From Phyllosticta citribraziliensis (lineage: Eukaryota): 64,000 nt of DNA. A program made the position numbers and the translations under genes. The notes beneath the pieces are model-generated. The model was given only the letters and a program-made list of their open reading frames with translations, did no database searches and had not been told where the DNA came from. Where the stretch lies: assembly GCF_038025025.1 (NCBI RefSeq), contig NW_027117338.1, positions 1,674,001-1,738,000 on the forward strand, read 5' to 3'. Below, piece by piece: positions 2,442-52,428 of this stretch; the stretch's first letter is position 1, and each line of letters starts with the position of its first letter.

Positions 2442-4070
2442 TTTCCTTGCATTCACGACGAAACGTTTTTCCCAGTTTCCATTCTCGCACCCCAATTATA
2501 GATTCCGTGGATAGCTCGACTCGGTTCGCATTTCTCTGCGCGGCGACTCGGTTCAAAGTTACGGACGATGGTTAATCATTCGGCAAAGGCGGCGTTTCTG
2601 AGACTTTCATTGCGACAGATTTTCTTCTCGATACCATTACATGTTCCCAGCACATCGCATAGAGCATTGGGTCGCACGCTCCAGCTTGTCCATAGCATTC
2701 AAACATCACGTTGTCAGGGCGTTGGTGTGGTACAAAAGAGTCTAGCATGTATTAATTCCGTCATTCGTTTGATCTATCTTCTGGCCTCCTTGGTCCATTT
2801 GCAGCCGATTCAGGAGCGTCAACTCATCATCTTCCAACACCAATCTCATATCAATCTCAATGAGCACTTCTTAGGACGTTTTCTCGCCTCGTACTGCAGA
2901 TCAGCAAGCGGGATGATAGTGCAGCATGGCTTCGCAGGCTTGGTCTGACATATGCAAAAGCGCAGCGCTCCCGGTGCAGTGCTGGGTGTAGCACTAAGCT
3001 TCGGGACGCATTCCTGCCGCTACCTTCCGAGTCTGTCAGTCATGATGCTCTGCATTTGCACACGGCCTGCGGCACTTATGCTGCGCGCTGATCCTCAAGA
3101 AATTTGCCCTCGTTGCTCGGGACAAGGCAGATGCTGGATCAATTCATTCTGTGTCCGCAATCCCGTTAACTCTTCGAAAATCAACGACCAAGAGACTGAA
3201 ATCGACGCAGCAGAAAACTGAAAAACTCTCGAATTCGAACCGAGCCTACTAGCTCGACCCACAAGCTAAGCTTTGCATTTCTACCACCACGCTTTCGCAT
3301 GCACGTCATAGCATCATGACACAAGCGTTTCCGAGCAACAAAACCACATCACGCCACACACTCGACTCCACGACCACCGCCCAACCCCCTCGCTCTGCGA
3401 TCTCGAGGAAGAATACGCCAAGGATCCCGCTGCTGCGCACATCATCCACTACCTCTGCGTCCCATGCCCAACAACCACACGTCGCACCACTCCTTGTGCT
3501 CTTTCTCTCTCCCATCATCCATCACGCATCAGCCACCCCGTGTCCACCAAGCACAGCCGCAAGTAAGCACAAATACCTCGCGCTGCCTTCTGCGCAATCA
3601 TGTGGGTACGCGTCGTGTTTGAAGACCCACACGCGCACGTTCCGCGTCGTTTCGACCGTTCAGCTGCGGCTGTCAATTCCTGGCTGCGGCCGTGTCTAGA
3701 AGCGCAGTTGGCTGTCGAGTGAATCAGGAGGTGGGTAAGCTGAGGCTACTGAAACCCTTTTCACATCGCGGAAAAGGGAGTTTCGTTTCGCTCCGCTTCG
3801 CGCGATGCGGCGGCGGAGTGTTTGGCATCTCATATGTCCGTCTTATTCTGTTGCTGACAGGAGGAGTTAAAGCGAGCTGACAGGTCCAAACGAATGATCG
3901 ATCGTTTCTTGATGCGATGCGAGAAATCGGTGGCTTTGGCGTTATTTGAGTGCCCATTTACCGCATCAAAATTCTCATAGGTTCTGGGCGTCGAATTCTC
4001 TTCGTCGCTTCTTCGAATATTATCATACTCACTTGCTTGAAAACTAGAATATACTGACACACTGTGTGCC

Positions 4071-47240: not shown

Positions 47241-48789
47241 ATGGAGGAAGACCGCGCGGCGACGAATCTGGGGCCAGAACCAGTCGAAGAACTGAACGCG
47301 GAGCAGAATTCGGCTCCTAAGCAACCCAAGAGACGGTTCGTTGGAAGGAAAACCGCAGCCGGAACAGCAGCAGCAAGATCAAATCCCGACCCAAACGCAA
47401 ACATCGAAGATAGCGGTGCAATTCAAGGCAAGAGAACCAGAAGAAATGATGTCCAAACTCATGCTAATAGATTAGGCAGTCGCACCACCACGGAGAACAG
47501 CTCGCGCGCTCAACAACATCCCCGCGTCCATCCTCGAGGACCCCGACATCAACGAAGCCATATCCCTTCTCCCTACAAACTACAATTTCGAAATACACAA
47601 GACGATACATCGCATTCGCTCCAATGACCACAAATCAGTCGCTCTTCAGTTCCCTGAGGGACTTCTCCTGTTCGCCACCACAATCTCGGACATCCTGACG
47701 CAGTTTTGTCCCGGAATAACCACAACGATTATGGGAGACGTTACATACGGCGCATGCTGTATAGATGACTTCACTGCGCGGGCGCTGGGCTGCGACCTGT
47801 TGGTGCATTACGCCCACAGTTGTTTGATTCCCGTGGCAGTCACAAAAATCGCAACATTATACGTCTTCGTCAGTATCGGCATAGACACGCAGCACCTAGT
47901 CGACACGATACAACGCAACTTCGCTCCAGGCAAGACTATCGCCATGGTTGGCACGATACAGTTCAACGCCACCATCCACGGCATCGCACCACAGCTACGG
48001 CGAGAAGGCTACGAAGTAGTCGTCCCACAGATCATGCCTCTCTCCAAGGGCGAAATCCTCGGCTGCACGTCGCCACGACTCGCCGGTCCCAAGTCCAAAT
48101 CCTCTTCTCTCCTCCCATCAGCCACCACAAAGGCCTCCAAATATGACCCGCCATATGCAGACCTCATTCTGTACCTGGGAGACGGCCGCTTCCACCTCGA
48201 ATCCGCCCAAATCCAAAACCCGCACTTGCCCTCCTACAGCTACGACCCGTACAGCCGGCGCCTAAAGCACGAGACGTACGCCCATTCCGACCTCTACGCC
48301 CTGCGCACGACGGCGATCCAGTCAGCGCGCAAAGCCAAGAAATGGGGACTGATTCTCGGCGCCCTCGGACGCCAGGGCAACCCCCACACGCTGACCATGA
48401 TCGAAAACATTCTAAAGAAGAAGAGGATCCCGTGCCTCAAGATCCTGCTGAGCGAGATCTTTCCCGGCAAGCTGCAGCTGATGAGCGCGAGCGAGGAGCA
48501 GAAGAAGCCGCAGCAGGCGGGCTCCAACGATGGCGACTGCGAGGATGGCGGCGTCGAGGCGTGGGTGCAGATTGCGTGCCCGCGTCTGAGCATCGACTGG
48601 GGCTACGCGTTCCCACGGCCGCTGCTGAGCCCGTACGAGGCGCTAGTCGCGCTGGGCGTGCGAGAGGCCAAGTGGATGGATGCGGCGGAGAGGGGCGACG
48701 ACGCGGCCCAGGAGGTCTATCCCATGGACTTTTACGCCAAGGAGGGACTGGGAAGGACGACGGCGGGACAAGTAGAAGTTGTAGCATAA
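47241..48789 (+). CDS. DPH1: Diphthamide biosynthesis protein 1
   Basis: [80 protein letters not shown]. Confidence 0.96.
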
Positions 48790-49051: not shown

Positions 49052-51927
49052 TCACCGAATAGTGTCCAAACCATGCCTGTCCGCACCATGCAGCTCCTCC
49101 AAAATCTCACTGCCGCCCAGCGCACCCAACGGCTTCGCCTTCCTGCGCTCCTCGCTCCACACCTCATGAAACTTGATGCTGGTGTCGCTCGTGGCGACAA
49201 CGATGCAGCCCTCGACCTGGGTACGGGACCACCAAGCGCCACCCTCACCGCGGGTACGCCCGTCATTGGGACCGCCGGGATACGCTATGGCGAAGAGGGC
49301 ACGGTGGTCGTCGGGCCAGGGGACGGCGACGAGCTGTTCGCAGGCCGGCCAGCTGAAGACGGCGACGCGATACGGGTGGTCTGGCTGCGCAAAGCCAAAT
49401 GTCGCGCAGATCTCGCGTCGCGTCGTGCTCCAAATGAGCGACGTCACTTGGGCGCTGCAGTCGATGGTGGCTAGGCATGCGCCGCTGAAGGTGTGGTAAA
49501 AGTGGATGCATCGGTCGTTGGACCCGCCGCCGATGGCTAGCAGACCGCGCTGCCACGGGCAAAAGGCCATGGCTTTGACGGCTGCGTTGAGAGTCCAGCA
49601 ATGCTTTGCGGCTGTTGCGTCAATGTCCGTCACTTGGAAACGATCCTTCATTGCTGCACAAAAGTTGTTGAGCGAACCAAAGAGGCGCTTGGTATCAAAA
49701 AGAAAACACTGATTGTCGTTGCCACCCGAGGCGAAAAATTCACCGTACGGGGACCACGCGAGGCCACATATCTGCTGGGAGTGGACGTTGATTCGGGCAA
49801 GCAGGGTCATTGCACCTGGCCAATTGAAAAGGTCTCGAGAGGTGACGTCGGGCCATTCCACAGAAAAGAGATAGACGTGACCTTCTTCATCGCCAACCAA
49901 GAGCGTCTCCGTACTGGCCACCAAAGCCGGGTCCCGAATCGAGGATTGCTTGACTGTGTTTGGACTGAAGGAGAGACATGATATGGGAGCTGGTTGCCGA
50001 GCTTTGAATCGAGGTTCTTCGTCAAACAGACTCCACAGGCAAACGGAGCCGTCAGCGCGACCAATGGCCAGTATGGCTTGGCCGCCATCGCTGGACGAGA
50101 AAGATAAAGAGGTCACATGTGCTGTGTAACTTGCGTTGATACTTTCAGGTGTGCCCACACCTCGTGTCTCGGACCACAAGTAGACGCTGTGGGCAAGACC
50201 GACGGCAAGACAGTTAGCCGTGCGCGAGTAAGCAAGTACGGTGCAGTAAAAGTCATCCCGGAGTCGCGGCGCATCGAGTACTGTGCATGATGTCAGCAGA
50301 AGGTGTCGCGCGTAAGAGGCCAACGTATCTGAAGGGGATGGTTGGAACAGGTCTTCTTTCTCGTGATGACTTCTTTGGGTCTGTTGCTTGTCAGCATATT
50401 TAAGCAAATTGTGATGATAGCAAGGGAACGACTTGTAGTGCATCCTTCTCTGATCCACTGGCTGTTTATCCAGGACGGAGCGCGAGAAGTATTCTCGCCC
50501 GGAGGAATTCCTGGCTTGTCAAAAGATCCAAGCACACGGCTAGACGTATCTATATCCATTGCATGCGCCAGCCGGCGCTCATGCTCCTCCTGAGCACTCT
50601 CAGAGTCGACCTGGGTGAGGAACATGGTCGTATGCAACGGAGCGTTGGTCCCGCTGCTCAGCATGCCCCCTCTGCCATCGGGTATGCCAGGTACACTGTC
50701 CGTGACTATGGCAGATCCGCCGACATTCCACACTGCTCCGTTGCTGACCTCACGACTGCCATGTCGAGGAGCTAGAATACCTTCCGGGCTGGGTGAGCTT
50801 GGGCCGATTCCAGCAGGTCGAACAGCACCTTGGAGGTTCTGGTACGATTGGATCCTTGTGCTGCGTGGAACGTGTTGGCCAAAAGGATCAAACTCAGGAT
50901 GTCGTTGGCGTGTGAATTTCTCGACCTCAGACAAGTTTTCCGCCGGCGTGCTCAATCGCAATGTCTCCCTGGAGGTTGTGGGTGATTTCCGCGGAGGAAT
51001 AAATCTGTCCAAGCACCTGCTTGCGATACGTTCTCGCACATGAGAGCCACTGGGGAAAGATCCTCTCCGCATTTTGAAAATCGAGCCACGGTCTCGAAGC
51101 GCAAGCGGCGACAGAATACTCGCTTTACGTTCTTGCTGCGGGAACGGATACGCGTCAGCCGCCTGAGTTGCCGGGATGAGAGGCGTTGGTGTTTCCAGCA
51201 TATCACGACCAGGACTTGGAAATGCAACGTTGACCGGATTGGTGAGATCAATGGACATCGCGTGCCTTCGAGCCGTATCGTCCGAGCTTCCACCAGGTAC
51301 AGAGGTGGCATCTGGAAGCCTAATGTCTCCATCGGCATCTTTGACCTGACAAATGTCGTTCTCATCCAAAGAGAGTTTCAATAGCCCACCAGAGATGGAT
51401 TCGTCGGCGGGAGAGGCATCAGGCATGTCCACATCTTCATCCATGCCATCGATCTGTGTGAGGACATCAGAAGGAGCCAGAAAGTTGTTGTTCTCGTATG
51501 ATTTGGATGGGCAAACTTGTCCTCTCAGAGCCCATTTTGGAGGCTGAGAACTGTCGGACAGTCGTCGCTAACGGCGTATCGAGCTCCCTTGATTCTGATA
51601 TGTTGGGTTGAGAGAAAAGGTGCTGGCCAAGTCGAAGACCGGCTTCGGAGGACTGCTCGGAGGAGTCAACAGGTGCCCCTTCACAGGTTCCGATCTAGTA
51701 TTTTTATGATTTCCAAATTGAACACGCTTTGAAGAGTCCGAACTGCTTGCGGGGTATCCTTGGCTGTACGAATGGATGGATTTTGGTGGAGTCGGCGGCG
51801 GGGTAAGAGTTGGGATGTTGGAAAAGTCTAAGCCGCTGCCGGCCTTTGGCAAAACAGAGTGATCAGCATAGCGAGACTTTTCCAATCCGGTAAGAAATCT
51901 GGGCGAGTCCTTCTTTGCGGGCTCCAT
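49052..51927 (-). CDS. AMA1: Meiosis-type APC/C activator Ama1 (Cdc20/Fizzy WD40 family) with in-frame TAG and AT-AC intron
   Basis: C-box DRFIP, PFR|VLDAPRLRDDFY, HSQQICGLAWS, ASGGNDN, AAVKAMAFCPWQ, GGGSNDRCIHF, QVTSLIWS, C-terminal IR tail. Upstream ORF 51568-51927 is in frame with 50293-51444 across a single TAG. Introns 50381-50432 and 50283-50328. Confidence 0.88.
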
Positions 51928-52428
51928 GTTGACGCTGACTGTTGGGCGGAAAAGCGCGAGGCGCGAACGAGGACAAAAGTTGGGAGGACGTAGTTTTGAT
52001 TGAGGTCAACGCGACAAGGTACCAGCCCGCTGTGGAACACGCTGGGACGCAGGACGAAGACAGTGGAATCTAGACAAACGCGTCCAGGGGAAAGAAAATC
52101 CGCGACGAGTGCCGTCCTGATGGGGAATTGAGCGAAGAGCGAGGACAGCGGCTGGAGGTAATAGCAATGATTTGGCCAGGGACAAAGAGATGCAACGTCT
52201 GGCGTGAAACCTGCTCGTTAGTAAAATATCGGCGACCCTGAGGCTGCTGGAGAGGAAAGGTCAAGGAGGTTGCAGGTCATCGGGTGACGTTTGGGTAGCG
52301 GTCCGGGTACGATTTCCGATGACGAAACCGGAGAGCGCGCTAGACACCCAGACCCTGCCACCGAAGCTTACCTCCTCCACAACAACAACTCCAGCCCTTT
52401 CTCAGCCCAGCCCGCCCAGGAAGTTGAA

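Follow-up and report, generated by a model that had tools for sequence, protein, structure and literature searches.

A probable U2-type AT-AC intron in the AMA1 orthologue of Phyllosticta citribraziliensis and in other filamentous ascomycetes

Does a gene of the Cdc20 family in Phyllosticta citribraziliensis contain a real intron that begins with AT and ends with AC, and if so, which spliceosome would remove it? The question is raised by an AMA1-like gene in the window, which is the whole stretch of 64,000 nucleotides (nt) that was analysed. A preliminary description of this DNA had proposed such an intron at 50328-50283. We conclude, from the sequence and its orthologues, that 50328-50283 is very probably a genuine AT...AC spliceosomal intron of an AMA1 orthologue, excised by the major (U2-dependent) spliceosome and old in filamentous ascomycetes. 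The intron, its signals, and a competing pair of sites are as follows.

50283..50328, minus strand: intron 2, 46 nt, AT...AC; interrupts an Arg codon after base 2, before the Val of VLDAP
50323..50328, minus strand: 5' splice site ATACGT, the U2-type consensus except for A in place of G at +1
50292..50296, minus strand: CTGAC, like a branch site; the branch A (50293) is 10 nt from the final base of the intron
50283..50285, minus strand: 3' splice site CAC (YAC)
50281..50324, minus strand: competing GTTGGC donor (50324) and CAG acceptor (end 50281), 44 nt; frame lost with intron 1 removed

The sense strand is the minus strand. It reads CCCTTCAG, then the intron ATACGTTGGC...TGCTGACATCATGCAC, then AGTACTCGATGCGCCG, which confirmed the 46-nt intron and the flanks that had been described for it. 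Three further features are needed to follow the reading frame.

50381..50432, minus strand: intron 1, 52 nt, GT...AG (GTCGTT...CTGAC...CAG)
50329..50380, minus strand: mini-exon, 52 nt; codes for ..PKKSSRERRPVPTIPF and the first two bases of the Arg codon
49055..50282, minus strand: exon 3; base 3 of the Arg codon, VLDAP..., and the WD40 propeller, to ...TIR; stop codon at 49054-49052

In silico excision of 50328-50283 together with the GT-AG intron at 50432-50381 produced an open frame reading ...PVPTIPFR-VLDAP.... We enumerated the GT-AG, GC-AG, and AT-AC pairs near the site. Only 50328-50283, after removal of intron 1, gave ..PVPTIPFR-VLDAP... The nearest GT-AG option had been said to shift the frame. 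This holds relative to the mini-exon, but the same 44-nt pair (50324-50281) is in frame when intron 1 is retained, and the peptide is then unconserved and lacks PVPTIPFR. A 40-nt GC-AG pair would add two extra residues and has a poor donor. There is also an AG 2 nt past the AC of intron 2, and splicing there would break the frame. The enumeration also bore out the remaining canonical option, a single GT-AG intron of 152 nt (50432-50281) that is in frame but deletes the mini-exon with its PVPTIPFR. We return to it below.

The frame of exon 3 is open from 50281 to 49055 (409 codons). In a Pfam search, it matched PF24807 (CDC20/Fizzy WD40) with 209.2 bits against a cut-off of 200. Its closest proteins are from Phyllosticta citrichinensis (97% identity over exon 3) and P. 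citriasiana (93%). The best matches include proteins named by their sources as meiosis-specific anaphase-promoting complex/cyclosome (APC/C) activator AMA1 and as Bcama1, and not CDC20 or CDH1. By these sequence matches, the gene is an AMA1-type APC/C activator orthologue, and the AMA1 identity first given to it stands. The frame ends in ...LDTIR, and an upstream exon encodes DRFIP; we take these to be the IR tail at the C-terminus and the C-box, respectively.

50433..51567, minus strand: exon 1, open frame below an in-frame TAG; C-box DRFIP at 51009-50995 (DRFIPPR from 51009); identified by tblastn with orthologues P0001, P0003, and P0012

The mini-exon was recovered in the same way. In a tblastn search with P0012, PKKSSRTKRAIPTIPFR aligned on 50378-50328 and VLDAP from 50281 on, and the segment is contiguous in P0012, which is an intron-less orthologue. 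A PDB search with P0012 matched CDC20, Cdh1, and Slp1, and the mini-exon segment aligned with RYIPSLPDRILDAP (RYIPSLPDR) of human CDC20. Therefore, by sequence alignment, the mini-exon segment is an old part of the Cdc20 family. The ..IPxxPFR-VLDAP.. segment is present just before the propeller in all Cdc20-family activators. The earlier claim that excision restores a Cdc20-family motif thus held, for a segment that is conserved as far as human CDC20 and that needs the AT...AC ends.

Is this arrangement peculiar to one fungus? We scanned metagenome contigs with an orthologue alignment and obtained 80 loci, with matches starting at or near VLDAP. Four were not assessable (L012 has no upstream DNA, and L022, L027, and L073 have no motif in the locus). 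The census therefore covers 76 metagenome loci and the window, 77 in all. Ends of AT-AC at exactly the intron 2 site occurred in 36 of the 77, window included (27 distinct sequences), which is 35 of the 76 metagenome loci, in the same codon phase and more often than chance would explain. Eleven loci had GT-AG, ten of them at the same site and one (L034) shifted by two bases. Two had AT-AG (L039 and L044), and one had AT-AA (L041). Intron 2 was absent in the other 27. As counts of first and last base, these are 36 A..C, 11 G..G, no G..C, two A..G, and one A..A. The preliminary description had taken the intron to belong to this one gene copy and had suggested that orthologues be checked for AT..AC at this position; it proved instead to be a conserved AMA1 feature, shared by filamentous ascomycetes of several classes.

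In length, the 27 distinct AT-AC introns range from 46 to 53 nt, and their interiors are free to differ. A1, T2, A3, G5, T6, A-2, and C-1 are invariant in all 27. The first six bases are ATATGT in 13, ATAAGT in 6, ATACGT in 6, and ATAGGT in 2, so that every one fits ATANGT. At position -3, 20 have C, 6 have T, and 1 has A. A YTRAY branch site with its A 10 to 11 nt from the 3' end is present in 25. We found no U12-type boxes in the 27, neither the donor ATATCC (/ATATCCTT) nor a branch site like TCCTTAAC. The claim that the signals are U2-type therefore extends from the window to the whole set. Within 18 nt of both ends, 16 of the 27 have no in-frame GT-AG or GC-AG alternative, and those in the other 11 are idiosyncratic and unshared.

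The same mRNA would result if the intron were read one base over, as TA-CA. We favour AT-AC because the ten same-site GT-AG orthologues fix the phase, interrupting the Arg or Lys codon after base 2 as the AT-AC introns do, and because the intron of L038 ends in AC even though a G follows it. All 50 loci that bear intron 2 keep the mini-exon conserved and its own frame open, and in 47 of these there is an upstream frame break consistent with intron 1. Of the 27 loci without intron 2, 23 are also without intron 1. Introns 1 and 2 are mostly present or absent together, which suggests that they tended to be lost together. Such joint loss is what recombination with spliced cDNA would be expected to produce.

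We built a tree with FastTree from 106 rows (73 loci, window included, and 33 named proteins) and rooted it at the midpoint. It omits L035, L047, L068, and L080, which have open frames of fewer than 300 residues, and the taxon labels given here are approximate, being taken from tree neighbours. AT-AC is found to either side of the midpoint. AT-AC loci adjoin Pleosporales (Alternaria, Plenodomus, Paraphaeosphaeria, and others), Diplodia (Botryosphaeriales, where the window falls), Aureobasidium (Dothideales), Arthoniomycetes, Lecanoromycetes, and Leotiomycetes. Eight of the GT-AG rows group in one clade. The best named matches of one member, L070, are to Chaetomiaceae, Xylariales, and Hypocreales, and therefore we call the clade Sordariomycetes-like. 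Two more GT-AG rows, L043 and L045, lie in a Helotiales-like group, beside the AT-AG and AT-AA rows. Intron-less rows adjoin Mycosphaerellales or Teratosphaeriaceae and a few other groups. At the least, this tree requires 3 changes between AT-AC and GT-AG and 6 in intron presence. On these sequences, AT-AC appears as an intron type that is kept in many lineages, was changed to GT-AG at least three times, and was lost with intron 1 several times.

Two sets of loci show departures from AT-AC at close range. The close Helotiales-like loci comprise L039 and L044 with AT-AG, L041 with AT-AA, L043 and L045 with GT-AG, and L038 and L046 with AT-AC, and their WD40 frames are intact. These loci may mark steps of a transition between AT-AC and GT-AG, or they may show a relaxed choice of 3' end when A is at +1. 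In the Mycosphaerellales-like L034 (about 3940-4000), the GT-AG intron lies two bases downstream of the usual site, CGAG|GTATGT...GCAG|TA, and it looks like an AT-AC intron that was converted by way of the AG behind the old AC.

Which spliceosome would excise the intron? Ascomycota are reported to be without minor introns and without the minor small nuclear RNAs (PMC2846911; PMC10639083). U2-type AT-AC introns have been described with the consensus /ATAAGT (PMC5029451). An engineered AT-AC intron (Parker and Siliciano 1993, as cited in PMC5029451 and PMC11585973) splices in Saccharomyces cerevisiae. The last intron base is described as contacting the first at exon ligation, where A-C can substitute for G-G (PMC11585973). 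In filamentous ascomycetes, junctions with AT-AC ends are reported as infrequent in RNA sequencing of Trichoderma (69 of 14305; PMC4324775) and are listed for Fusarium (PMC3577648). We read the AMA1 intron as U2-type AT-AC because its signals are ordinary except for the terminal bases, because Ascomycota are reported to lack the minor small nuclear RNAs, because the engineered AT-AC intron splices, and because A-C can replace G-G. We found no earlier description of an AMA1 AT-AC intron in the literature that we searched, which did not extend to subscription journals or supplements.

We infer from these features that excision would proceed as follows. U1 and U6 would recognise /AUACGU, which is the ordinary fungal GUANGU apart from the A at +1, and U2 would pair with CUGAC. 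The 3' splice site would be the YAC that lies 10 nt past the branch A. In the second step, an A-C contact would take the place of the usual contact between G(+1) and G(-1). Given an A at +1, the spliceosome should favour the C over the AG two bases downstream, and the fixed spacing of 10 to 11 nt between the branch A and the 3' end may help it to choose the AC. Removal of both introns would join the 52-nt mini-exon to the WD40 exon, so that ..IPxxPFR-VLDAP.. is kept.

A further idea is that the AT-AC ends serve a purpose. The preliminary description had suggested an inefficient or regulated intron that forms a second RNA-level lock on the gene. On this view, the AT-AC ends would be weak by design, or would depend on a factor, and would confine AMA1 protein to the sexual stage. 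We consider this doubtful, although we rate it above the explanations that follow. In its favour, AMA1 is gated at the RNA level in two other lineages, by Mer1-dependent splicing in budding yeast and by adenosine-to-inosine (A-to-I) editing in Sordariomycetes. Yeast AMA1 is described as one of four Mer1-dependent transcripts (PMC11585973), in agreement with what had been said of it. In the Sordariomycetes gene FgAMA1 (PSC33), a premature TAG is reported to be corrected by A-to-I editing in the sexual stage, and such stops at the equivalent site of AMA1 are attributed to six independent origins (PMC10776026). The same paper describes editing as not known in Dothideomycetes. The window also has a TAG in the AMA1 frame.

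51568..51570, minus strand: in-frame TAG, context CGT TAG CGA; splits exon 1 from 145 open codons, Met at 51927-51925

The class with the editing gate might show the relaxed GT-AG form of the intron, which is the form of the Sordariomycetes-like clade, and the window copy with its TAG might carry two gates. The AG just past the AC, which would break the frame if used, also suits a lock, as does a contig from a relative's RNA library that runs unspliced into intron 2. However, 27 of the 77 loci have lost the intron outright, and its presence changed at least 6 times on the tree; this argues against an indispensable gate. AT-AC could also persist simply because each single-base step to GT-AG would be harmful. 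In addition, the Mer1 enhancer AYACCCUY had no exact match near the 5' splice site in any of the 27 distinct AT-AC introns; the window has one match at 7 of 8 positions, which is not conserved. We therefore entertain only tentatively the proposal that AT-AC was selected as a slow or factor-dependent signal and is a third, independently evolved RNA-level gate on AMA1.

Several side observations concern the TAG. It divides the AMA1 frame into open reading frames at 51568-52005 and 50293-51567, and we found no in-frame intron candidate spanning 51568-51570 that has a consensus donor plus a branch site. A contig from sequencing run X2 (51419-51746) shows no difference at the TAG. In run X6, a contig from a relative that is about 94.5% identical has 18 nt inserted in total at 51695-51701, above the TAG. 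This total is divisible by three, which hints weakly that the stretch above the TAG may be coding. In the Dothideales-like AT-AC locus L023, an in-frame TAG lies 108 codons above the C-box DRFIP, and the open stretch above that TAG has 229 codons. The TAG in the window may be equivalent to the edited site of Sordariomycetes, or translation may start below it.

An explanation to which we give far less weight, and which we regard as improbable, is that the functional mRNA is made with the one canonical intron at 50432-50281. The mini-exon would then simply be skipped, and the AT...AC intron would be an artefact of forcing homology onto the sequence. That intron is canonical and in frame, and the public Phyllosticta models use it. 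Among 120 long orthologue proteins, 60 have ..VP.IPFR directly joined to VLDAP, and 57 have LDAP not preceded by PF[RK]. The two nearest Phyllosticta models, P0121 (97% identity) and P0122 (93%), read ..CTT-I-LDAP and ..CTT-M-LDAP. They take a downstream internal Met as the start and have 622 and 611 residues, compared with about 950 in full-length orthologues. P0032 and other public models also skip the mini-exon. It is missing from an Alternaria panax protein with 92% identity to the AT-AC loci L008 to L010, and it is included in the models of Plenodomus, Stagonosporopsis, and Paraphaeosphaeria. To our knowledge, AT-AC introns are not normally considered by gene predictors. Therefore, the exon-skipping models are not independent evidence.

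Exon skipping would delete a segment that is conserved in intron-less orthologues and in human CDC20, and that is open and conserved in every locus bearing the intron. It would also leave the invariance of A1, T2, A-2, and C-1 in 27 otherwise diverged introns unexplained. The difference between I and M in the two Phyllosticta models would be a synonymous change in the Val codon if the intron is AT-AC. We therefore regard the models that skip the mini-exon as mis-annotated.

Slightly less probable again is gene decay, by which this copy would be a degenerating pseudogene of a fungus that is rarely sexual, its intron ends being mutated GT-AG and no productive splicing taking place. The TAG, with 145 open codons above it and no convincing intron to span it, is the observation that fits this view. 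However, AT-AC is the commonest state among the orthologues, which is not expected of a private mutation, and the intact WD40 exon of 409 codons has 97% identity to its counterpart in a related species. In-frame TAGs of AMA1 are reported to be edited in another class (PMC10776026), or translation may start below the TAG. We found nothing in favour of an assembly or sequencing error that hides true GT/AG ends, and we give it practically no weight: an X1 contig (possibly the source of the window) is identical here, an X6 contig from a relative spans the region with no listed indel, and 35 independent metagenome loci have the same ends.

These contigs come from a search of sequencing runs. Fifteen runs contain part of the stretch, and we examined four (X1, X2, X6, and X13), all as Logan contigs. 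X1 has one contig, identical over the whole stretch. X6 has one contig through everything. X13 is recorded as RNA and yields low-depth contigs from a relative that is about 90% identical. X2 has patchy depth. One of its contigs, of 2333 nt, ends exactly at 50282, and none lies on 50283-50512. We did not count this as evidence because it is from one study, is RNA by guess, and ends at a position that would also be an exon end for a GT donor on the plus strand (GTGCAT, 50283). This 2333-nt contig bridges the 3' ends of AMA1 (49052-50282, minus strand) and of a convergent 437-codon open reading frame (47476-48789, plus strand) about 260 nt away; their transcripts or read-through may overlap.

Proteins were a second place to look for a spliced form. 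Among the 80 of 240 proteins with a contiguous motif, none that comes from a plain open reading frame or is transcript-derived was at least 95% identical to an AT-AC locus, and the best reached 88.6%. The protein P0094 is an uninterrupted open reading frame of 901 residues, found on 9 Logan contigs that do not exceed 3330 nt, and shows 80% identity to the AT-AC loci L048 and L049. Its mini-exon runs directly into VLDAP, and it resembles the spliced transcript of a lichen fungus.

Some of our observations weigh against a U2-type AT-AC intron in a working gene. No splice joint is listed in X1, X2, X6, or X13, for which there are contigs only. The X13 contig 50306-50731 keeps the whole of intron 1 and extends, without splicing, 23 nt into intron 2; it could be pre-mRNA, a retained form, or contaminating DNA. 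The two nearest Phyllosticta models use the canonical exon-skipping intron. With the in-frame TAG at 51570-51568, this copy may lack whole-length translation. The AT-AG and AT-AA ends of three orthologues are not predicted by simple A-C pairing. The first and last bases covary on 3 independent changes only (sign test, p 0.25-0.5), and their coupling cannot reach significance because there are only 3 independent pairs. Finally, the lack of U12-type small nuclear RNAs is taken from literature on Ascomycota.

How does the AMA1 intron compare with known AT-AC introns? It is most like the U2-type AT-AC introns of animals and plants ('type II'), with which it shares AT...AC ends, a U2 5' splice site with A at +1, an ordinary branch site, and the lack of ATATCC. 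However, the AMA1 introns are in fungi reported to be without a minor spliceosome. They are only 46 to 53 nt long, with the branch A 10 to 11 nt from the 3' end, they are free at +4 (ATANGT), and they occupy one position of one gene across classes. The engineered S. cerevisiae intron with /AU...AC/ ends had the same double change, G1 to A and G-1 to C, which was described as restoring the second step. That intron is a construct, whereas the AMA1 intron is natural, conserved, and known here from its sequence. The nested AT-AC intron of S. cerevisiae RPL30 (PMC5029451) is likewise natural and in an ascomycete without U12 machinery. However, it is described there as a side product of 1 to 2% that is non-coding and has a 5' splice site unlike the consensus, whereas the AMA1 intron is consensus-like and must be removed for the protein to be made.

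With U12-type AT-AC introns, only the terminal dinucleotides are held in common, and the AMA1 introns have neither /ATATCCTT nor TCCTTAAC. The Mer1-regulated intron of S. cerevisiae AMA1/SPO70 is in the same family, in a meiotic gene, and has a non-consensus 5' splice site, but the Mer1 enhancer is absent here (0 of 27). The yeast AMA1 intron lies further 3', inside the WD40 region. Editing of FgAMA1 is also an RNA-level gate on an orthologue, and the window too has an in-frame TAG, but the mechanism differs. Judged by sequence, therefore, the AMA1 intron is of a known kind, the U2-type AT-AC intron, and its conservation is unusually deep.

At the level of annotation, a gene predictor that allows AT-AC at this site would repair the models that lack the pre-propeller segment. 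For splicing, the intron would be a natural AT-AC intron, essential for a protein, in organisms reported to have the major spliceosome only. The occurrence of AT-AC, GT-AG, AT-AG, and AT-AA at one site in close Helotiales-like relatives offers a series for the pairing rule of the first and last bases. If AT-AC does act as a third gate on AMA1, this would point to recurrent selection against expression of the gene outside the sexual stage.

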